NCBI GenBank assembly: GCA_041937175.2
Contig: CP166615.1
Coordinates: forward strand, 1,376,001-1,440,000
Source: Limnothrix sp. BL-A-16
Lineage (GTDB): Bacteria; Cyanobacteriota; Cyanobacteriia; CACIAM-69d
Length of the DNA stretch: 64,000 bases
Reading direction: 5' to 3'
Shown here: positions 1-39,353 of the stretch, piece after piece
Layout: each line of letters opens with the position of its first letter
Numbering within the stretch: the first letter of the stretch is position 1
Program-made: the position numbers and the translations under genes
Notes under the pieces: model-generated
The model's input: only the letters and a program-made list of their open reading frames with translations
Told to the model about the DNA's origin: nothing
Databases searched by the model: none

Positions 1-692
1 CCGCCCAACTCCAACAGGGTTTTTTTGAGGTGGGTTCCGCAATGGCTCGCCAGGGCGCTGCCTGCCCCTTCGCTGCCGGTGAGGGTGGCCGCCGCGATTC
101 GCGGATCCGCCACCAGGGCCGCCACCCGATCGCTCCCAATCAGCAAGGTTTGGAAGATGCCCGCCGGAAACCCTCCCGCCAAAAATAAGTCCTCTAGCTT
201 TTGGGCCACCTGCGGCACATTGGACGCATGTTTCAGCAGGGCCCCATTGCCGGCCATCAGGGCCGGAGCAGCAAAGCGAAACACTTGCCAATAGGGAAAA
301 TTCCAAGGCATGACGGCCAAAATGAGGCCCAAGGGTTGATACCGGATAAAGCTGCGATGAGCATCAGTTTCAACCATTTCATCCGCTAAGAATTCGGCTG
401 CTCGATCGGCATAAAAACGACAAACGGCGGCGCATTTTTGCACTTCCCCGATCGCTGCGGTTAGGGGTTTTCCCATTTCCAAAACAGCCAGCCGGGCGAG
501 GGCTTCACAGTCTGTTTCCAGGCGATCGGCCACTTGATTTAACCAGGCTGCTCGTTGGGCGATCGGGACAGTTTGGTAAGCCTGAAAGGCGCGATCAGCT
601 AAATCCAGTTTGGCGGCTAATGCCTGATCCGTGAGCGGTTCAAAACGTTGAACCCATTGCCCGGTTGTGGGATTGACAGTTGCAATGGCCAC
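1..692 (-). CDS. gabD: NAD(P)-dependent succinate-semialdehyde dehydrogenase (aldehyde dehydrogenase family), N-terminal part; runs off the window start
   Basis: Manual minus-strand translation from GTG at 692 (AGGAGG RBS upstream) gives MAIATVNPTTGQW...; the window start reads LKKTLLELGG (ALDH catalytic Glu motif); also MPWNFP and TLTGS motifs. Confidence 0.8.
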   Translation of the reverse strand, partial: MAIATVNPTTGQWVQRFEPLTDQALAAKLDLADRAFQAYQTVPIAQRAAWLNQVADRLETDCEALARLAVLEMGKPLTAAIGEVQKCAAVCRFYADRAAEFLADEMVETDAHRSFIRYQPLGLILAVMPWNFPYWQVFRFAAPALMAGNGALLKHASNVPQVAQKLEDLFLAGGFPAGIFQTLLIGSDRVAALVADPRIAAATLTGSEGAGSALASHCGTHLKKTLLELG

Positions 693-1333
693 TGGACACC
701 TCCTAGATTTGTCCATGTCCCATCAGAACCGATTCTGCACTGACCCAAAATCGCTTAAGGATTGATCAAGTACCAATTCTGTTCTGAGTTAAAGATTGAT
801 TGAAGTATTTGTTAAAAGTCAATTAGTGATGAGCTAATCACGCCAAAACAGCGTTGAAGCAATAGCCAAAAACCAACGATTGAGAACCGATCAATAATGA
901 TTGAAAAAATAATTAAAGAAACGATTGAAAAGTTAATGGCCAGTCATTGCTGATCCATTTCTCATCGAATACCTATTCCTATCCTAGATGGGTTTTGGGG
1001 TCTAATTCTCGGTATTTCGCCAAAACTGTGTAACCTTATACAAAACTACATCATGCCAAGTGACCCTGGCCGCTGATTGGTCACTGATTGGTCAAACGAT
1101 TGCCCATTGGGATGCAGTGCTTTGCGATGGTCGGAAGCCTATCTTGAGTGGCTGAAGCGAAAGGTCGTTGTCTTGAATTGTCGCTCTTGAATTGCCGCTG
1201 TTTTTTGGATTAAGACTGTGCTGAGTTGCGCGTAACCTAATCGTTCTGCCGAGGTCGATTCAACCTTACCTGCGATTAACTGCCGCGTCACTGGTTTCTC
1301 AGCTCTCCTCTTAGTAACCCAAGGACAACTCCC

Positions 1334-4300
1334 ATGGCAACTTGGCTCCATCGCTCTGGTAATCGGTTGCTGGTGCTGCTGTTGTGGGGAAGTTGTTTGG
1401 GGAGCGGGGGCGATCGCGCCTGGGCCTTTAATCCCGAGCATTTGCGCCAACTGTTTGCCACCAATCAATGCGAGGGCTGTGACCTGTCGGGGGCGGATCT
1501 CAGTGGCCAGCGGATGAGCTATGCCAACCTGAGCGGGGCCGATTTGCGGGGCGCGAACTTATCGGGGGCCAATCTGAAGTCGGTTTTGGCTTGGCGTGCC
1601 AACTTGGCCGGGGCTAACTTGACGGGAGCCAATTTGGAAGATGCCACCCTGTCGAGGGCGAATTTGCAGGGGGTGAATTTGCGATCGGCCATCCTGGAGG
1701 ATTGCGATCTAGAGGGCACGGATTTGGCGGGGGTTGACCTCAGCGGCGTGGACTTGTCCAGAGTCAGTTTCAACGGAGCGAACCTGACAGAGGCCAAGTT
1801 GATGGGGGCCGATTTGTCTTGGGCGGAGTTAAACCGGGCGAATTTGACCAATGCTGATCTAACGGGGGCAATTCTGTTTGGGGCCGATTTGAATGGGGCG
1901 AATTTGACCGGGGCCAAGCTGGACGGAGCCAACATCGATGGGGCCGAAATGGCGGGGGTGATTGGCTACGGTGGCCCGCTGCCCAAGGAGGGGCCGGCAA
2001 TTCTAATTCAGGAGCAACCAAATTCGGCGGAGGGCGATCGCCTGTTGGAGCAGGGCGTGAACCTGTTGGGCCAAGGTCGGTTGCCGGAAGCACAGACCAC
2101 CTGGGAACAGGCCCTGGGAATTTATCGGCGCGATCGGGATGGGGCCGGAGCGGCGGTGACCATGGCTCAGTTGGCTATGGTCACCTTTCAGCGGGGGCAA
2201 TTGGATCAGGCGATCGATTGGGGATTCCAGGCGCTGAATCTGGCTCGGCAGGAGCGATCGGCCAGTGCGGAATCGGTGGCCTTGGGGATCATTGGCAATG
2301 TTCACTACGAGCGGGCAGATTATCTGAAAGCCCTGGAGTTTTATCAACAGCGGTTACAGGCCTCCGCTGGTGGGCCCTTCTACCATGCGGCTTTGATCGA
2401 TCGCGCCAAGGGGGCGATCGCCATTGGCGACTATGCCACCGGAATGCTCGACAGCTTGGAGGTGCTCAACGATCCGCTGCAAACGGCCACACCCGTTCGG
2501 CGCTTAGGAGCCTTGATCACCATGGTGCAAGGCCTGATCGGCGCAGGAGACTATGCCCAGGCTCGCCGCTACCTGAACGAAGCCCGCCAAGACCTGAAAG
2601 GGGTCAGCAATCGGCTGTGGGAGCCGGAGTTTTGGCAACTGAGCAGCGCCCTTGATCTGAACCAAGGCAACTTTACAGCGGCGATCGCAGCGGCAGAACA
2701 GGCCTGGGAAATTGCCCCCAGCCCCCGATTGAAATATGCGGCCCAACGCTCGATCGGCCTGGCCCAAGCGGCCCAAGGCAACTGGGGTGCGGCCATCAAA
2801 TCCTATGAAGCGGCGCTGAACATTGCCCAAACGGTGAACGATCGACGGGGCCGCGTGGAGGTGCTCAGTGATTTGGGGTTGGCTCTACACCAATCCGGCG
2901 ACCTAAACCGAGCGGCCAGCGTCCTCACCCAAGCGAGCGAAGGTTGGGATGAGCTGGTGCAAACCTTCATTGGCGAGGATTATTTCAAGGTGGGGTTCAT
3001 GGAGCTGCAAACCCAGGTTAATCAACGGCTTCAGGATGTGTACTTGGCTCAAAACCGCCCGGAACAGGCCCTGGTGGTGTCAGAACAGGGGCGATCGCGC
3101 GTGTTTTTGGACTTGATGATGGGGAAATTGGCTGCCCAAGGTCGTTTGGCTAACCCCGATTCCGCTGTGTCGGTGGAAAGCATCCAGGCCACTGCCCGAT
3201 CGCAGCGGGCCACCCTGGTGATCTACGCGGTTCAGCAAGAGGACAGCACGACCTATTGCAGCATCTACAGCAAGTCCTGCCAATTAACCACCGCCAAGCC
3301 CCAAACCAGCGCCCTCAACCCGCCGCCACCGGACAAGGTGAATATTTGGGTGGTGTCGCCCGAGGGACAAATTCACTTTCGGCGCGGCCAGTTACCTCAG
3401 GCCGAAAACCAGCCTCATCCCGTTCCCTTGAACGATTTGGTGAGCCGCAGCCGCAGCAAGGTGACCTTTCAACAGTTGCCCAGCCTGCGCCAACTCCACA
3501 GCCTGTTGATTGAACCGATTGTCGATCTGTTGCCCAAGGAGCCGAGCGATCGAGTGGTGTTTATTCCCCAAGGCACGCTGTTTTTAGTGCCCTTTGCGGC
3601 CCTGCGCAATCCCGATGGCCAATACCTGATCCAAAATCACACCCTGTCGGTCTCTCCTTCCATTCGCGTGTTGGCCCTGGCCAGCAGCCAACTGCCCCCA
3701 CTATCAGCGGGACAACCCCAACCCCTGCGCGGCCCGGCTTTGGTGGTGGGTAACCCAACCATGCCCCAAATTCCCGATCGCAACTTGGGCGACCAGGAGC
3801 GCTCCTTGGCCCCCTTGCCGGGAGCCAGCCTGGAGGCCCGGGCGATCGCCCAATTGCTGAACACTCAGCCCCTGGAGGGCGCAGCGGCCACCGAAACCGC
3901 CGTCACCGCCCGGATGGAAGAATCCCAAATTATTCACCTTGCCACCCATGGCCTGCTGGATGACTACTTCGGTGAGGGGGTCATTCCGGCGGTTCCGGGG
4001 GCTTTGGCGTTGGCTCCCAGCCCCAATCCGGAAGGGGATGACCAAGATGGATTCCTGACCACCGAGGAAATCTTGAACCTGAAGCTAAAGGCGCAGTTGG
4101 TGGTGCTGAGTGCCTGCGATACGGGACGGGGCCGACTCACTAGTGATGGGGCGATCGGGCTGTCGCGGGCGTTCATTGTGGCGGGTGCGCCCAGCACGGT
4201 TGTTTCCCTTTGGGCAGTGCCGGATCAGCCCACTTCGGAGTTGATGTTGACGTTCTACCGGGAATTTTTGAAGTCGGGCGATCGGGCCGCGGCCCTGCGG

Positions 4301-7358: not shown

Positions 7359-7681
7359 TTTTCGTCAACCTCCAGACGACAGTCCAGCTAGCAGCGGGTC
7401 TGCTTGATTGATAATGACCGGCAATGACCGGACTAAGATAAACCAGCTTCTCAGTGTATCCTAATTCCAATCAAAAGGGCGGCAATCCCGGTGGGGTAAG
7501 GATTCGGTTAACTTTTGGTTATACCCCCGCAGCCCTAGGGCGACCTGTGAAGTCATCCGCAAAGCCCTAATCGACAGTCCCGGCGATCGATCCTGACCAA
7601 ACTGGCCCATTTTTTTGCACTATTAGAAGGGCAAAAATTTCCCGCCCCTATTATTTTTCCCTTTCTTGAGGAGTGCAAGTC

Positions 7682-8131
7682 GTGGAACGTACGTTTATTG
7701 CCATCAAACCCGATGGCGTGCAGCGCGGTCTGATTGGTGAAATCATCAAGCGTTTTGAAGTCAAAGGCTTCACCCTCGTGGGTCTCAAGCTGCTGAACGT
7801 GAGCCGCGAGCTAGCTGAAGAGCACTACTCGGTACACCGCGAGCGCCCCTTCTTTGCTGGCTTGGTGGAATTCATCACCTCCGGCCCCGTGGTGGCGATG
7901 GTGTGGGAAGGTGACGGCGTGGTGGCATCGGCCCGCCAAATCATTGGGGCCACCAACCCCCTGACCGCCAATCCGGGCACGATCCGGGGTGACTTTGGGG
8001 TCAACATTGGCCGCAACCTGATCCATGGTTCCGACGCAGTGGAAACGGCCCAGCGCGAAATCGCATTGTGGTTCAAGGATGAGGAGCTGGCCAACTGGTC
8101 TCCGACGATCAGCAAGTGGCTGTACGAATAG
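7682..8131 (+). CDS. ndk: Nucleoside diphosphate kinase
   Basis: [33 protein letters not shown] at 7682 after a GAGGAG RBS. Confidence 0.97.
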
Positions 8132-8305
8132 GATCGTTCACTAACCCTCGCCACTTGCGAGATTGGGGCGCGTCCTCAAATTCGATTCATGAAAACTCGA
8201 TTCAATGGGGCTGGGATATGTGGATCTGCTCAATGTAGATCTGCTCACCCCCATGATCTTGGGCAAGGGGCTGAAGCCCCTTGTCTTTGTTGATTTTTGG
8301 GTCTT

Positions 8306-10878: not shown

Positions 10879-11028
10879 GCAACTGGGATCGTGTTTGGGC
10901 AATCAATCCCAATCGACAGGAACTCAAGCACGCTAACCCAACAAATTTAAGGTAGGGGCGCACATCAGTGCGCCCTAAATTGATCGTTTTATTTACTATT
11001 CTCGTGCAGAAATTTCAAATTCTTCCAT

Positions 11029-11050
11029 AAAAAAAGGGGCCGAAGCCCCT
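11029..11050 (-). terminator. Rho-independent terminator on the minus strand downstream of acsF
   Basis: Minus strand reads AGGGGC-TTCG-GCCCCT followed by a T run. Confidence 0.7.
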
Positions 11051-11243
11051 CAACCACCAAAATTCCACCAAAGATTTAGAGAACTTGACCAGTTAACGAT
11101 CGCTCTCATGCTTCATGCTTTGAAAATGATCATCAAGCATCAAAGTCGATCGCAGCACCGACCGAGGAAAGCACTCAATCGCGGACAATTCAGCGTGGGT
11201 CACTGAGTTAAAAACCTAGTTAGCAACTCAGCTAGCACCTCAG

Positions 11244-15350: not shown

Positions 15351-16378
15351 CAGTTCTTACCGTAATCACTAGGTACAATAACAACATTTGGTAAACCAGT
15401 TTTTCAGGCACTGTAAATCCACCAGTCGGGCTGCCAATCTAGTTAATTGTTCCAACACTTCTATGGTTTCTGTTCTAAATTTCCACAAAAAGATTTTTAA
15501 CTGTGACCACATCATTTCTATAGGTTTAAAATCTGGTGAGTACACTGGCAGATATTCTACTGTTGCTCCTACTGCTTCTATCATTTCTTTCACTTCTGGA
15601 CGATGATGAGAGTTTAAGTTGTCCATGATAACCACATCACCCACTTTTAACTGCTGTGCCAAATTTACTTTAACAAACTCTAGAAAATCTTCCTTTTTCA
15701 TTGAGCCTTTCAATCCTTTTATTGTGACAACTCCTGATCGCCTGATCGCACTAATGACTGTCATCTTTTTACCGTAATAGGGCTTCTGGGTTTCATAAGC
15801 CTTCATTCCTTTTTTAGCTCTGGCCATGGGGCGATTCATCCCAACCCAAAAACCGCTTTCGTCAATGAAGACAAGCTTTTCAGCTTCCACTTTCAAAATT
15901 CGCTGCCAGTAGCTCACGCGCTCGGCTTGTACTTCCGCCGTGATTACTTTTTCGCTCCTGTATGTTTTTTTGAGGCTGATGTCATGTTGCTTTAAAAATC
16001 GATCCATCATGCTTGTGTTAGAACTGACACCCAATTTTTCTTGCACTGCTTCGCAATACTCTCGCAATGTAAAATCAGGATTAGTCTCTACAATTTCTAA
16101 GATGGCTTCTTCATGCTGAGACAAGATGCTCACTCGCTTCGTGCCACACTTCTTAGGTACTAAGCTTCCAGTTGAACGATATAGATTTAGAAGCCGCCTG
16201 ACGGTATCTGGACTAATCGAAAACTGTTTTGCCACTTTCCGAATTGAAGTGTCTCCCTTTTCGTAGGCTTCTACAATCTTTCGGCGCAAGTCCAGAGAAT
16301 AACGACCCATGAGTTTTCCTGACGATAACTCAACTACACTTATAATTATGTCGTACCAATCGTTCTAGGTAAAGGCTG
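15351..16378 (-). mobile_element. IS630-family insertion sequence
   Basis: Transposase ORF bounded by imperfect inverted ends (CAGttcTTACC...GGTAC / GTACC...GGTAAaggCTG); TA on the left flank; AT-rich and HIP1-poor. Confidence 0.8.
15369..16310 (-). CDS. IS630-family transposase (HTH + DDE in a single frame)
   Basis: YSLDLRRKIV N-terminal HTH; VFIDESG, IMDNL..H, YLPVYSPDFKPIEMMWS catalytic motifs. Confidence 0.92.
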   Translation of the reverse strand: MGRYSLDLRRKIVEAYEKGDTSIRKVAKQFSISPDTVRRLLNLYRSTGSLVPKKCGTKRVSILSQHEEAILEIVETNPDFTLREYCEAVQEKLGVSSNTSMMDRFLKQHDISLKKTYRSEKVITAEVQAERVSYWQRILKVEAEKLVFIDESGFWVGMNRPMARAKKGMKAYETQKPYYGKKMTVISAIRRSGVVTIKGLKGSMKKEDFLEFVKVNLAQQLKVGDVVIMDNLNSHHRPEVKEMIEAVGATVEYLPVYSPDFKPIEMMWSQLKIFLWKFRTETIEVLEQLTRLAARLVDLQCLKNWFTKCCYCT

Positions 16379-33241: not shown

Positions 33242-33279
33242 TTCAATCCTACAAAGCCCTAAACATCTGCGAGGTACAG

Positions 33280-33393
33280 ATGAACTTACAGCATTTTGCT
33301 GACGACCGCCAAAGGCTTGGGTCGTCAAACTTTTACAGTGCAACGCTTCAGCTCAGCACCTTAGCCGTGCCTCCCTGTTCGACTAATTCCTAA
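33280..33393 (+). CDS. Putative 37-aa leader ORF directly under riboswitch control
   Basis: The hairpin CATCTG-CGAGGTA-CAGATG contains the GAGG SD and the ATG; translation is not proven. Confidence 0.35.
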   Translation: MNLQHFADDRQRLGSSNFYSATLQLSTLAVPPCSTNS

Positions 33394-33772
33394 GTCCAGG
33401 CGGGCGCAGACCCCAATTCCCTCCAAGAGCTGACCGCTAGGGCCATCCGGTTTCTACCCAATGGCAAGGGCCAATCACGATGACCGGAGACTGATGATCA
33501 GGCCTCCCGATCGCTGATTGCATTCTGGACTTCCTCTAGATTGTGAGAAACCCGATCGCCCGATCAAAGTCAGCGGGACTTGGTGTTAGCGAGACTAAGA
33601 AGGCTGACAAACTTAACCTTCGTCGCTCTCACCAGTGACAAACTCCAGCACAGGGGCACAACCGCAAACCTTGTGGATTCAGCCCCCCAGCGAGACTCGG
33701 GCACCCTCAAATTAATGCCCATACTCGCTGCATTTTGGCTGGATTAGGTCTGTCTGTCGCCTGGGACTTGGG
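33389..33772 (+). ncRNA. Large multibranch structured RNA in the metE leader (unassigned)
   Basis: Long closing helix 33389-33428 / 33733-33772 plus at least five internal helices found by manual pairing. Confidence 0.45.
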
Positions 33773-33904
33773 TTCAACATTCATCCCTTGACATCGCGCG
33801 GCCTTGCCTAGCCGATCGGTGGGTGTTCTGTTCGATCAAGCACCCCTCAACTGCGCTGTCATCATCACTCAAAATTTCGCAAAATTTCAGGAGCCTCGAT
33901 TCCC

Positions 33905-36154
33905 ATGGTTATTCAAACCGCCACCTTGGGCTATGCCCGCATGGGCAAAAATCGTGAAGTCAAAAAGGCCCTAGAGTCTTTTTGGCATGGCAAGTGTGAG
34001 ATCAACGCATTGCGATCGACCGTAGAAGCTGTGGAAACCCATGCTTGGACAGTTCAGTTAAAAGCTGGGGTCGATCGAATTGCCGTCGGAGACCAAACTC
34101 TTTACGACCACGTTCTAGATTGGTCAGTGCGTCTGGGGCTAATTCCCGCTCGGTTTCGGCAGTTCACAGGCATTGATCAGTACTTTGCGATGGCCAGGGG
34201 CAAAGACGGGATTCCTGCACTCGAAATGACGAAATGGTTTGATACCAACTATCACTATCTCGTGCCCGAAATTGAGTCTGATCTTGTTCCCACGGCCAAT
34301 TTCGATGATTTCCTAGCAACGGTCAAGCGAGCACAGCTCATTCTCAGCGATCGGGCAACTCCCGTGATCCTCAGTCCGATTACGCTGCTCACCCTCAGTC
34401 GGCGCTCCAACGATCTCTACTCGGATTTAGATCGGTTGCTGCCTCTTTACCTTGACCTACTGGGGCAGTTGAAATCCCTGGGAATCACCGAGGTGCAATT
34501 CCATGAGCCAACCTTAGTAACCAGTCATGCCGGTGATTTAGAAACTGCAATTAAACATACCTACCATCAACTAGCAACTGCGGGGTTGCCGATTCAACTG
34601 GTCACCTACTTTGATGATTTGGGGGATGCCTATAACTGGGTGATGCAGCTCCCGGTAGCTGGAGTTAGCCTCGATTTCACACGAAGCAACAATCTATCTT
34701 TAGTGAAAACCCATGGCTTTCCTCACGACAAAGTGCTTGGGGCCGGTGTTGTGGACGGGCGGAGCGTTTGGGCCATTGAACCCAAGGGTCTGTTGGAACT
34801 GCTTCAGGAATTGCAGGCAATCACACCAAATTTGCGTGTTCAGCCCTCCGCGTCACTCCAGTTTGTTCCCCATGATGCAACCTGCGAAGCTCAACTCCCG
34901 CAACCTTTGCGCGATGTCCTCAGTTTTGCGGAGCAAAAGTTAACGGAAGTGGTGTTGCTGGCAAGCGGCCTCAACGGACAAGACACGACCAACGAGCAAG
35001 CTGCGATCGAGTTGCGTTGGCAGGCATTCAAGCATTTCAACTTACCTAACCCGGCAGTGCGCGATGTGTTACAAACCCTCAAGGTAGAGGATTTTCAGCG
35101 CTCCCTTCCCTATGAACAACGGCTGAATCAGCAACCCAAACTTCCCCCCCTGCCCACCACCACGATCGGTTCTTTTCCGCAAACCCAAGACATTCGACAA
35201 CTGCGGCTCCGATACAAAAAAGGGGAAATTTCCCAAGCGGACTATCACCAGGCGATCGATACCAAAATTGCAGAGTGCATCAAACTCCAAGAGGACGTTG
35301 GGCTAGATGTGCTAGTGCACGGTGAGTTTGAGCGAACTGACATGGTGGAGTATTTTGGACAGCAACTCCAGGGCTTTGCCTTCACAACGGATGGATGGGT
35401 GCAGAGTTATGGCAGTCGTTGCGTTCGCCCACCCATCATTTATGGTGATGTGTCCCGACTGCAACCCATGACCGTTCGGGAGTTTCAAGTTGCACAATCA
35501 TTGACAGATAAACCGGTGAAGGGAATGCTCACGGGCCCGGTCACCATGATCAATTGGTCATTCCCTCGGGCTGACCTCCCGCGCCGTGAACAGGCCATGC
35601 AGATTGCGCTGGCTTTACGAGATGAGGTTGCCGATTTGGAAGCCGCTGGCGCTGTCATGGTGCAAGTGGATGAACCGGCCCTCCGGGAAGGATTGCCCTT
35701 GAAATCTGCTCGGTGGAATGAGTACCTCAGTTGGGCTGTGGATTCGTTCCGATTAGCCACCGGTGGCGCGAAGACTGAAACCCAAATTCACACGCACATG
35801 TGCTATTCCGAGTTTGGAGACATTATTGAGCACATTGAACGCCTTGATGCGGATGTTCTATCCATTGAAAATAGCCGCAGCAACAACGCAACGCTCTTTG
35901 AAATCACGGATGCTGGATATCAGTATCAAGTTGGGAACGGGGTCTATGATGTCCACAGCCCAAGCGTTCCCAGTGTGGAACAAATTCTTCAGCAGTTGCG
36001 CACGGGTGCTGATCGTTTGCCTGTTCAGCAAACCTGGATTAATCCTGACTGCGGGCTAAAAACTCGCCAGTGGGAAGAAGTGCTTCCTGCGCTCAAAAAT
36101 ATGGTGCTCGCCACGCAAAAGCTACGGGAAGAAATTCATGATTCATCCCACTAG
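33905..36154 (+). CDS. metE: Cobalamin-independent methionine synthase
   Basis: EMTKWFDTNYHY, PTTTIGSFPQT, VHGEFER.DMVEYFG, HTHMCYSEF, WINPDCGLKTR; AGGAG RBS. Confidence 0.97.
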   Translation: MVIQTATLGYARMGKNREVKKALESFWHGKCEINALRSTVEAVETHAWTVQLKAGVDRIAVGDQTLYDHVLDWSVRLGLIPARFRQFTGIDQYFAMARGKDGIPALEMTKWFDTNYHYLVPEIESDLVPTANFDDFLATVKRAQLILSDRATPVILSPITLLTLSRRSNDLYSDLDRLLPLYLDLLGQLKSLGITEVQFHEPTLVTSHAGDLETAIKHTYHQLATAGLPIQLVTYFDDLGDAYNWVMQLPVAGVSLDFTRSNNLSLVKTHGFPHDKVLGAGVVDGRSVWAIEPKGLLELLQELQAITPNLRVQPSASLQFVPHDATCEAQLPQPLRDVLSFAEQKLTEVVLLASGLNGQDTTNEQAAIELRWQAFKHFNLPNPAVRDVLQTLKVEDFQRSLPYEQRLNQQPKLPPLPTTTIGSFPQTQDIRQLRLRYKKGEISQADYHQAIDTKIAECIKLQEDVGLDVLVHGEFERTDMVEYFGQQLQGFAFTTDGWVQSYGSRCVRPPIIYGDVSRLQPMTVREFQVAQSLTDKPVKGMLTGPVTMINWSFPRADLPRREQAMQIALALRDEVADLEAAGAVMVQVDEPALREGLPLKSARWNEYLSWAVDSFRLATGGAKTETQIHTHMCYSEFGDIIEHIERLDADVLSIENSRSNNATLFEITDAGYQYQVGNGVYDVHSPSVPSVEQILQQLRTGADRLPVQQTWINPDCGLKTRQWEEVLPALKNMVLATQKLREEIHDSSH

Positions 36155-36572
36155 CCCAAGGTTGTCAAACCTGACTGTTGGCTTACCCAACGTTATTCAG
36201 GATAACTTCCTGTACATCGGCTATGTTGCATGGCAAGGCCACCTCCAATATGGACGAGGGATGGTGGCTTGTACAGTGCAAGAAACGGTGACTAATCGCT
36301 TGGGTGGGATTGAGGATGTAACAGCAAGGTCTGTGCAATATATTCCGTTCGACCTTGCTGCTTTATACCTTGACCTTTGCCTTGTGCCTGTTAGTTCAAT
36401 CGATCGCCTGTTGAGCGTGATCAAAACCTATGCACCCGATCGAGAGATTTTGATTTTGGTCAAGCAAGGTCAAGATGTGGAGATTGACTGGCTGCAAAAC
36501 CTAGCAATTTCACCTTCTGAGTGTTATCGCCAAGTGTGCGATCGCTGGTCAGAGTTTAATCTGGCTTCTTAA
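36138..36572 (+). CDS. Hypothetical protein, paralog of 38886-39353
   Basis: Overlaps the metE stop by 17 nt; shares GY.AW...L..GRG.V.C and ISP...Y..VC....EF.L with the downstream paralog. Confidence 0.75.
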   Translation: MIHPTSPRLSNLTVGLPNVIQDNFLYIGYVAWQGHLQYGRGMVACTVQETVTNRLGGIEDVTARSVQYIPFDLAALYLDLCLVPVSSIDRLLSVIKTYAPDREILILVKQGQDVEIDWLQNLAISPSECYRQVCDRWSEFNLAS

Positions 36573-38064: not shown

Positions 38065-38784
38065 ATGGACTTTTACACTGAACAATTGGCTCGCAAGCGC
38101 TCCTGGACACCCACTTGTGGCGAAAGGATGAACACAATGCCGGGCGCGGATCAAGTTTTGGGGCGGGCCCTGGCGCTGCGTGTTCTTGAATTAGAAGTGG
38201 CGGAATGGCTAGACGACGCTTTGGGCAAAACGACACTTCCAGCAACAGCAGTTGAATGTCTGCGCTCTAATATTCTTGATGAAGAACGGCACGACAAAGT
38301 GTTAGGAATGGCCGCTCAAATCTATCAACTGACGACCGATAGGGACGAAGCAGAAGCCAAACAAATTCATCAGCAATGGATTCATCATCCTGACCATCCA
38401 TTGGTCAAGGCCTTCGTGTTGGAAAATTCCGTCTTCTTTGTGATTCTGCCCTTGCTGCGGATGTTTGGTGGCGTGGGTTTGGGAATCATCTCAGGCGATA
38501 TTTCCGGTGATGAATCTGTCCATGCGGCCGTCCATCGCCAAGCAGCGCATGATCTAGGATTGACCTACAGCAGTTCCTTAGATCGTCTTAGAAGAGATAC
38601 CGTTGGTTGGCTGGTGGATGGCTTGCGAATCCCGGAAGCGGGACGTTCTGGGAAACCTCAACGTTGGTTGGATGCGTCAGATAGTTTGCTCTATCAAGGG
38701 GCTTCTGATTTGGTGGAAACCCGTCGCGCAATTCAGCCTGCATTTTTTGAAATTGCTAACGATGCCCTACCGAGCTATCGGTAA
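38065..38784 (+). CDS. Ferritin-like ribonucleotide reductase small (beta, NrdB-like) subunit
   Basis: 239 aa, 12 nt after alpha; ligand pattern LELEV / DEERH / LENSVFF / DESVH; C-terminal LPSYR. Confidence 0.83.
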   Translation: MDFYTEQLARKRSWTPTCGERMNTMPGADQVLGRALALRVLELEVAEWLDDALGKTTLPATAVECLRSNILDEERHDKVLGMAAQIYQLTTDRDEAEAKQIHQQWIHHPDHPLVKAFVLENSVFFVILPLLRMFGGVGLGIISGDISGDESVHAAVHRQAAHDLGLTYSSSLDRLRRDTVGWLVDGLRIPEAGRSGKPQRWLDASDSLLYQGASDLVETRRAIQPAFFEIANDALPSYR

Positions 38785-38885
38785 CTGGTCAGATAATGGC
38801 TTGAGTTCTATCACTGACAATCATAATTTTCAGCATTTTCGACCATGGGTTTTGATCTGAAGTTGTGACGAGTTGGAGTTTTTGG

Positions 38886-39353
38886 ATGGCGACATCTTCT
38901 TCTGACTGGCAGGAGTCCTTTGTTGCCACAAATTTAATTGCTCTGGGATATAACGCTTGGAGTAATTATTTGGCGGGAGGACGAGGTGCAGTGATTTGTA
39001 GCTTGAATTTACCGCAGCTCAACATCACAGGAGAAACATTTCGTACCCATTATGTTGTGAGATCACGACTCGCTGCATTTTTAAATGCCTGGCTAGCCTT
39101 TCCTGATACGGTGATTCTGAATCATCACCATATGAATGGTCATATCTTACAAGCCGTTGACAGCTACAATCCCGAAACCGATCTGGTTTTGTTGCTGGAA
39201 TCTGGCGCGCAAGCCGCTTTTTTATATTTACGCGCTTTGCCCATTTCGCCTCCTAAAAGTTATCAGATCGTTTGTCAAATTCAAGATGAATTTCGTCTAG
39301 AACAACCGAACGCTGCTGAGTTGGGGCAATCTGGAATTGGTCTGAATTTTTAG
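38886..39353 (+). CDS. Hypothetical protein, paralog of 36138-36572
   Basis: GGAG RBS before ATG 38886; shared motifs as above. Confidence 0.75.
   Translation: MATSSSDWQESFVATNLIALGYNAWSNYLAGGRGAVICSLNLPQLNITGETFRTHYVVRSRLAAFLNAWLAFPDTVILNHHHMNGHILQAVDSYNPETDLVLLLESGAQAAFLYLRALPISPPKSYQIVCQIQDEFRLEQPNAAELGQSGIGLNF

Follow-up and report, generated by a model that had tools for sequence, protein, structure and literature searches.

A chromosomal class Ø ribonucleotide reductase pair in a cobalamin-riboswitch-metE operon of Limnothrix: a tyrosine-less beta subunit and its probable role as a backup in vitamin B12 shortage

Introduction

The ribonucleotide reductases (RNR) called 'Cyano SP' were described by Harrison 2019 (PMC6370689) as having a beta subunit without Y122, with a first coordination sphere like that of classes Ic and Id and a unique Asp/Asp (D/D) second sphere; this beta branches apart from class Ic, and a subclass If was proposed for it. 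In Burnim 2022 (PMC9531940) the clade was named class Ø; its ferritin-like partners of ~240 aa were reported to have a radical site occupied by Phe or Leu, considered 'much like class Ic', and to end one residue beyond a C-terminal Tyr. Class Ø has been assigned a position ancestral to classes I and II, with a beta subunit that is unstable or unisolated in vitro (PMC9531940, PMC11067019). A 2024 paper (PMC11067019) gives this beta as not isolated so far, and a preprint of February 2026 (PMC12918982) gives the class as 'yet to be biochemically characterized'.

The class I chemistry that lies behind the storage and relay steps proposed below has been reviewed (PMC8463856), and a Glu first ligand combined with an inert residue has its precedent there in the Mn/Fe cofactor of class Ic. 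Control of an RNR by vitamin B12 is known from Streptomyces coelicolor, in which nrdABS (class Ia), present in addition to NrdJ, is governed by a B12 riboswitch (Borovok 2006, cited in PMC4991794); in cyanobacteria, the metE promoter is known to be controlled by a riboswitch (PMC8123684). Literature listings and one supplement of Burnim 2022 contained no report of a class Ø RNR in a riboswitch-metE operon, although the species list of Fig. 4A may include such genomes.

The window analysed here is a stretch of 64,000 nucleotides from Limnothrix sp. BL-A-16 (contig CP166615.1, positions 1,376,001 to 1,440,000), in which a first-pass annotation had pointed to a small RNR beta subunit with a seemingly unusual metal site. 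The explanation that we favour as a whole, with a probability of roughly three in four, is that this gene codes for a radical-generating class Ø beta subunit with a metal-stored oxidant, which would act as a backup when B12 is short.

Results

Identity of the RNR pair

To judge from its homologues, the ORF at 38065-38784 (Table 1) is a class Ø, or 'Cyano SP', beta subunit. It matches 56 phage records (among the matches listed, nearly all are named Synechococcus, Prochlorococcus or Cyanophage), is 42% identical to the beta of Prochlorococcus phage P-SSP7 (YP_214198) and matches PHROG 6799 with an E of 3e-70. Its E-E-H-E-E-H ligands and its D72/D149 second sphere are those of the published Cyano SP row and align with P-SSP7. 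Other attributes of the class found in this protein are the R2/ferritin fold, a Leu at the Y122 site, a penultimate C-terminal Tyr and the lack of a PF00268 match (there was no Pfam match at all, and no NCBIfam beta match), together with a length rightly described as very small, which at ~240 aa is normal for class Ø. The gene lies directly 3' of a class Ø alpha gene, after a gap of 12 nt, as expected for a small ferritin-like beta of this kind.

The alpha subunit matches the class Ø alpha of Synechococcus phage S-CBP4 (PDB 7URG) with an E of 2e-128, the next PDB match being at 2e-10. It has no ATP cone, the alignment with 7URG starting near residue 13-20, and contains a C35/C197 pair, the catalytic N184-x-C186-x-E188 and a C-terminal C453-x-x-C456. 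The YY dyad previously noted in alpha is Y423-Y424, invariant in 34/34 alphas, the set over which invariant columns were judged.

Table 1. Features of the Limnothrix locus (window coordinates)
Feature	Position	Strand	Remarks
Cobalamin riboswitch aptamer RF00174	33113..33256	+	61.5 bits, gathering score 31.5
Six-pair hairpin, GAGG loop, ATG (33280) in 3' arm	33264..33282	+	RNA folding of 33257-33300
metE, cobalamin-independent methionine synthase, 749 aa	33905..36154	+	PF01717, PF08267
hyp1, 144 aa, unannotated, small family 3' of metE in other cyanobacteria	36138..36572	+	
Class Ø RNR alpha, 458 aa	36676..38052	+	ATG 36676; ORF finder start TTG 36655
Class Ø (Cyano SP / proposed If) RNR beta, ferritin-like	38065..38784	+	ATG start, 239 aa
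Predicted beta metal-ligand codons	E42 38188, E73 38281, H76 38290, E120 38422, E150 38512, H153 38521		
Other key beta codons	L80 (Y122 position) 38302, W14 38104, D149 38509, Y238 38776		
hyp2, about 155-162 aa (start uncertain), hyp1 paralogue (27%)	38865..39353	+	

Among the relatives there are long-form class Ø alphas of 520-585 aa (loci L011/L014, L015, L017, L020, L022, L023, L025-L033 and L039). The N-terminal part of the Limnothrix alpha matches them twice, suggesting an internal duplication, and no duplication was detected when the L014 alpha was compared with itself by blastp. Phage-like genes are present at the long-form loci L014, L023, L030 and L031, and in some phage-like loci (L017 8863-9987; L033) alpha and beta are separated by an ORF of 374 aa. 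On metagenome contig L022 one such class Ø alpha-beta pair is located between runs of 10 and 3 copies of CRISPR-DR58 repeats (7495-8202, 10885-11067). The S-CBP4 beta (L072 2501-3210, NC_025464) is annotated with 205 aa; the terminal Tyr and the rest of the last 38 residues are in another frame. This break is also present in HM559717 (two pieces) and could be a sequencing error, a pseudogene or a frameshift.

Metal site and fold of the beta subunit

The stretch around H76 reads D72-E73-E74-R75-H76-D77-K78-V79-L80 and is followed by E120, D149-E150 and H153, the predicted ligand set consisting of four Glu and two His at six positions. L80, four residues after H76, occupies the position of E. 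coli Y122, confirming the Leu reported at the radical-Tyr site, and the Tyr seen close to the C-terminus is Y238, followed by R239 as the last residue. Tyr is absent from residues 6 to 86 apart from none, and The W14/D149/H76 triad is kept, W14 being aligned by motif with E. coli W48.

The distances E42-E73 (31) and H76-L80 (4) are the same as D84-E115 and H118-Y122 in E. coli NrdB (K-12 gene). Sequence and profile comparisons were weak or null: beta gave 0 PDB matches at E<=10, the family profile gave weak matches only (one of them, E 0.25, places the H..L site opposite the H...Y site of the class Id beta PDB 8DQ5), and hhalign of the family against single-sequence E. coli NrdB gave no meaningful alignment. 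Because of this, the equivalences with NrdB are based on motif spacing and on the fold match. The latter comes from the structure-based comparison that the first-pass annotation had suggested, in which the AlphaFold2 model of beta (pLDDT 91.8, low in the tail 220-239, with a break at residues 38-39) has an R2-type four-helix core and resembles the R2 proteins of four classes (Ia, Ib, Ic and Ie) to a similar degree: over about 215 residues the rmsd is about 3 A and the identity 9-15%, and Z is about 19-20, with Z of 19.1-19.4 and 13-14% identity for class Ic R2 (PDB 4D8F, 4M1I, 1SYY).

Conservation was followed in two sets of homologues. The close set (n=63) is composed of beta and 62 of its 70 matches, eight partial or over-long ones being left out. 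For the distant set, representatives at 50% identity were searched with a profile, which matched 379 proteins at E<=0.001; the best 150 of them were examined, and the 115 of these that cover the six ligands and position 80 were used. Tyr at position 80 was found in 0/63 close homologues and in 0/115 distant representatives (from the best 150 of 379), the latter having Leu (55), Phe (48), Ile (7), Val (3) or Met (2). The Glu of LELEV proposed as first ligand proved to be the first one, E42, present in 63/63 aligned homologues, while the second (E44) is replaced by Pro in 40/63. In the same 115 of the best 150 of 379, the first ligand is Glu in 115/115, D72 is kept in 113/115, W14 in 106/115 and Y238 in 104/115. 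Within their ligand helices, these representatives share no near-invariant Tyr, Trp or Cys: position 77, Asp in the Limnothrix beta, is Tyr in 30/115, and Y87, 11 residues beyond H76, is Tyr in 54/115. Judged by sequence position only, another aromatic residue near the metal site would be excluded. R39 was considered as a substitute for Lys71 of class Id and was dropped, since it is present in 59/63 close homologues but in 42/115 distant ones (best 150 of 379).

The residue observation is real and not due to chance. What could not be maintained is its unusualness, because the missing Tyr, the all-Glu/His site, the size, the short Tyr tail and the likeness to class Ic are already published for class Ø. 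The residue pattern is ordinary for this class, and the less ordinary part is a chromosomal class Ø pair inside a presumably B12-switched operon.

Proposed mechanism and cofactor

In the proposed mechanism beta would bind two metals, which would be oxidised by O2 or a reduced oxygen species, and the oxidising equivalent would be stored on these metals and not on a Tyr; in each turnover the oxidant would be relayed from Y238 of beta to Y423/Y424 of alpha and then to C186. The metal-centred oxidant without a tyrosyl radical, already put forward in the first-pass annotation, stays as the best reading, in line with the proposals of Harrison 2019 and Burnim 2022. The accompanying comparison with class Ic has to be narrowed, since the D72/D149 second sphere, the lack of a tail extension and the published trees set beta apart from that class: it may work like class Ic yet is not a member, differing also in length, partner alpha and Pfam/NCBIfam status. 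Class Ic pairs a Glu first ligand with an inert residue, and for this reason Mn(IV)/Fe(III) is taken as the first guess for the metals of beta, a guess to which we would give even odds.

The first-sphere ligands of beta match class Id as well as class Ic, and neither NrdI nor a second small-subunit RNR gene was found beside beta, nor a flavodoxin among its neighbours; the missing NrdI is a feature of class Id, which suggests a dimanganese cofactor, Mn2(IV/III), assembled with free superoxide. Published alpha trees in which the NrdAk/NrdAi(Id) branch has Cyano SP at its base (Harrison 2019, PMC6370689) point in the same direction, as does the Pro at E42 +2 in 80/115 distant representatives (best 150 of 379), which could distort helix 1 as in class Id, and the modelled break at residues 38-39 would be consistent with it. 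However, position 44 of the Limnothrix beta itself is Glu and not Pro, and in those 115 of the best 150 of 379 the conserved second-sphere Tyr of class Id is found in 0/115, while the equivalent of Lys71 (position 46) is Gly in 81/115 and Lys in 5/115, being Ala in Limnothrix. A class Id-like cofactor is rather unlikely.

It is less probable still that the site is di-iron, with the oxidant on another Tyr or Trp or as transient Fe(IV)/Fe(III). The distant representatives (115 of the best 150 of 379) do conserve redox-capable residues, namely W14 (106/115), W182 (88/115), W105 (84/115) and Y87 (54/115), and the fold scores equally against di-iron R2s. Nevertheless, their ligand helices have no near-invariant Tyr, Trp or Cys, W14 corresponds by motif to W48, the usual residue of the H-bond network, and a Glu first ligand accompanies Mn-containing cofactors in both characterised cases (PMC8463856).

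The riboswitch-metE operon

The pair is part of a same-strand array (all +) with the order riboswitch, metE, hyp1, alpha, beta, hyp2, proS, in which the intergenic gaps from metE on are -17, 103, 12, 80 and 96 nt and the RNR genes are 3.4 kb downstream of the aptamer. The hairpin that follows the aptamer, identical in L. redekei, is likely the expression platform. In the 103-nt gap ahead of alpha, a hairpin resembling a terminator and a weak match to a promoter are present, such matches being at or below chance level (2 promoters vs 5.7 expected from shuffles, and 13 terminators vs 9.8 expected). Contigs from RNA libraries of four studies, which carry no strand, ends or level and may include DNA carry-over, span parts of the operon, the alpha-beta junction among them, and were given no weight as evidence.

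Between the aptamer and metE there is a 650-nt leader (33257-33904), 93% identical in L. redekei, where the ATG of the hairpin opens a 37-codon frame (33280-33393). Neither hyp1 nor hyp2 belongs to a Pfam or NCBIfam family above cut-off, and at locus L100 a riboswitch precedes a hyp2 homologue alone, so this unnamed family is probably B12-regulated. A DDE transposase gene is present at 15372-16310 of the window.

In the comparison set, composed of 19 metE loci from 18 other cyanobacterial genomes (17/18 with a metE match, one left out, plus one further), metE has a same-strand riboswitch ahead of it in 17/19 loci; in one locus the riboswitch precedes a hyp2 homologue instead of metE, and in one it is absent. 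A full-length hyp-family gene follows metE in 12/19 loci, hyp1 and hyp2 are adjacent in 7/19, and hyp2 homologues are normally directly 3' of metE or hyp1. The class Ø pair was found in 0/19 of these loci and, therefore, interrupts a conserved metE-hyp1-hyp2 operon in Limnothrix.

Distribution in cyanobacteria

The nearest named relative, Limnothrix redekei (97%), has the order riboswitch-metE-hyp1-small ORF-methyltransferase-hydroxylase-alpha-beta-hyp2. The same embedding is found in the Desertifilum sp. SIO1I2 MAG, where it is distributed over two contigs with 126 identical shared bases inside alpha; the riboswitch is present, the metE at this locus is a 25-codon stub and an intact metE is located elsewhere. 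The Limnothrix and Desertifilum betas are 82% identical, and one transfer event may be behind the pairs of both genera.

The arrangement is nevertheless rare. Beta was found in 0/400 other cyanobacterial genomes sampled; it is present in 2/8 genomes of the order (1/7 others) and in 1/14 of the search in the Desertifilum family. One congeneric genome has neither beta nor metE, with other genes preceding proS. A scan of the genome collection with a single-protein query, which may miss more distant cellular copies, gave 3 loci, and the 20-member 90% cluster of beta includes named entries from several Limnothrix strains.

Other arrangements were observed at related loci. A methyltransferase and a UbiH-like FAD hydroxylase (PRK07364), which the Limnothrix window does not have at the corresponding position, are in the riboswitch operon of three genomes (L. 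redekei L009 5965-8550; Desertifilum L105 2808-5412; L085 7373-9845). Locus L085, from another cyanobacterium, also has a conventional class I nrdAB (224-3664, - strand) divergent beside riboswitch-metE, possibly a parallel solution, and at locus L097 an insertion element interrupts metE.

Host genome and backup role

The host genome (4.56 Mb, two contigs, 100% complete) encodes a B12-dependent class II NrdJ with an intein (1504 aa; contig positions 1366841-1371352, about 4.6 kb before the window start) and the B12-dependent MetH, and no PF00268 or NrdD match was found in it. It also contains cob/cbi genes and two more riboswitches, at the cbiM and cobW loci. With metE and the RNR pair set against MetH and NrdJ, the operon provides B12-independent counterparts of both B12 enzymes named for cyanobacteria in Harrison 2019. 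Upstream of it there is a same-strand riboswitch, and the two B12-dependent enzymes are encoded elsewhere in the genome, as in a backup operon.

The gene content suggests that the host would routinely use NrdJ and MetH and that a shortage of cobalamin or cobalt would open the riboswitch, with metE and the B12-independent RNR taking over both jobs. The class Ø pair is thus probably a backup for B12 or cobalt starvation. Furthermore, we lean towards the view that at least two filamentous cyanobacterial genera have domesticated a cyanophage class Ø RNR as a riboswitch-controlled, cobalt-free replacement of NrdJ.

Origin of the pair and selection

In a tree of 72 betas, the Limnothrix beta groups with the Desertifilum MAG and with proteins from phage-like or mobile-looking loci; a phage origin of the pair is likely. 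No plasmid records matched. A prophage was considered and rejected, because 0 phage proteins were found among the 36 other window proteins scanned.

The pair could also be a passive phage or mobile remnant that landed in the operon by chance and has no role in host DNA synthesis. Its nearest relatives outside the operon are found amid ssb, terminase, portal, endolysin and processivity factor genes, its distribution is patchy (the counts for the order and for the Desertifilum family given above), and its GC3 is low (0.47-0.52 vs 0.74 for proS), all of which would fit such an accident. Nonetheless, both frames are intact and the alpha-beta pair is under purifying selection: against L. redekei, dN/dS is 0.031 for beta (65 synonymous and 9 non-synonymous differences) and 0.099 for alpha, comparable to proS (0.059) and metE (0.08). 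The absence of phage genes from the rest of the scanned window, the operon genes on both flanks of the pair in two genera, its retention in the Desertifilum MAG despite the metE stub there, and the 20-member cluster with its several Limnothrix strains also argue against a remnant, which we regard as very improbable.

Discussion

A chromosomal copy in a cultured Limnothrix offers an in vivo route to the metals of class Ø and to the question of B12-free DNA synthesis, and a culturable host could supply a beta subunit that has resisted isolation. If domestication is true, it would be genetic evidence for class Ø working in a cell without B12, and cobalt starvation of this host would induce a natively metallated beta, with a cofactor or alpha-docking possibly unlike those of classes Ia-Ie. 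If the backup role is true, it would explain how a B12-producing cyanobacterium survives cobalt shortage.

The closest known systems are the class Ø enzymes of P-SSP7 and S-CBP4, with which the Limnothrix pair shares a ~240-aa gene after a minimal alpha, the ligands, the D/D second sphere, the Leu and the penultimate Tyr of beta, and the YY dyad, the lack of an ATP cone and the C-terminal CxxC of alpha. In the class Ø papers (PMC6370689, PMC9531940) the class is described from cyanophages and marine bacteria, whereas the Limnothrix copy is chromosomal and in a cobalamin-riboswitch-metE operon. Its beta belongs to a distinct subclade and has Glu, not Pro, at position 44.

With class Ic R2 (Chlamydia trachomatis NrdB, Mn(IV)/Fe(III)) it has in common the Glu first ligand, the inert residue at the Tyr site and the fold, but it is about 90-100 aa shorter than the listed class Ic chains of 317-336 residues, has D72 in the second sphere where class Ic has E119 (the NrdBzc row being E/D), has no extension after the transfer Tyr and is partnered by a class Ø alpha. 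The separation of class Ic in trees is taken from Harrison 2019 (PMC6370689); members of the NrdBzc clade are PF00268 proteins of about 340 aa. Class Id R2 (Flavobacterium johnsoniae, Mn2(IV/III), PDB 8DQ4/8DQ5) shares the all-Glu/His first sphere, the absence of NrdI, a cone-less alpha and, as proposed for Limnothrix, a metal-centred oxidant; the Limnothrix beta differs from it in having no equivalent of Tyr104 (L80) or Lys71 (A46) and in being much shorter. R2 proteins of classes Ia, Ib and Ie have an Asp first ligand and a radical Tyr or DOPA, with NrdI in Ib and Ie, in contrast to E42, L80 and the lack of a flavodoxin neighbour in Limnothrix.

Regarding regulation, B12 represses the B12-independent isozyme in Streptomyces coelicolor, where the class II RNR does the routine work. 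The backup is a class Ia enzyme there, whereas in Limnothrix it would be a class Ø enzyme sharing its operon with metE.
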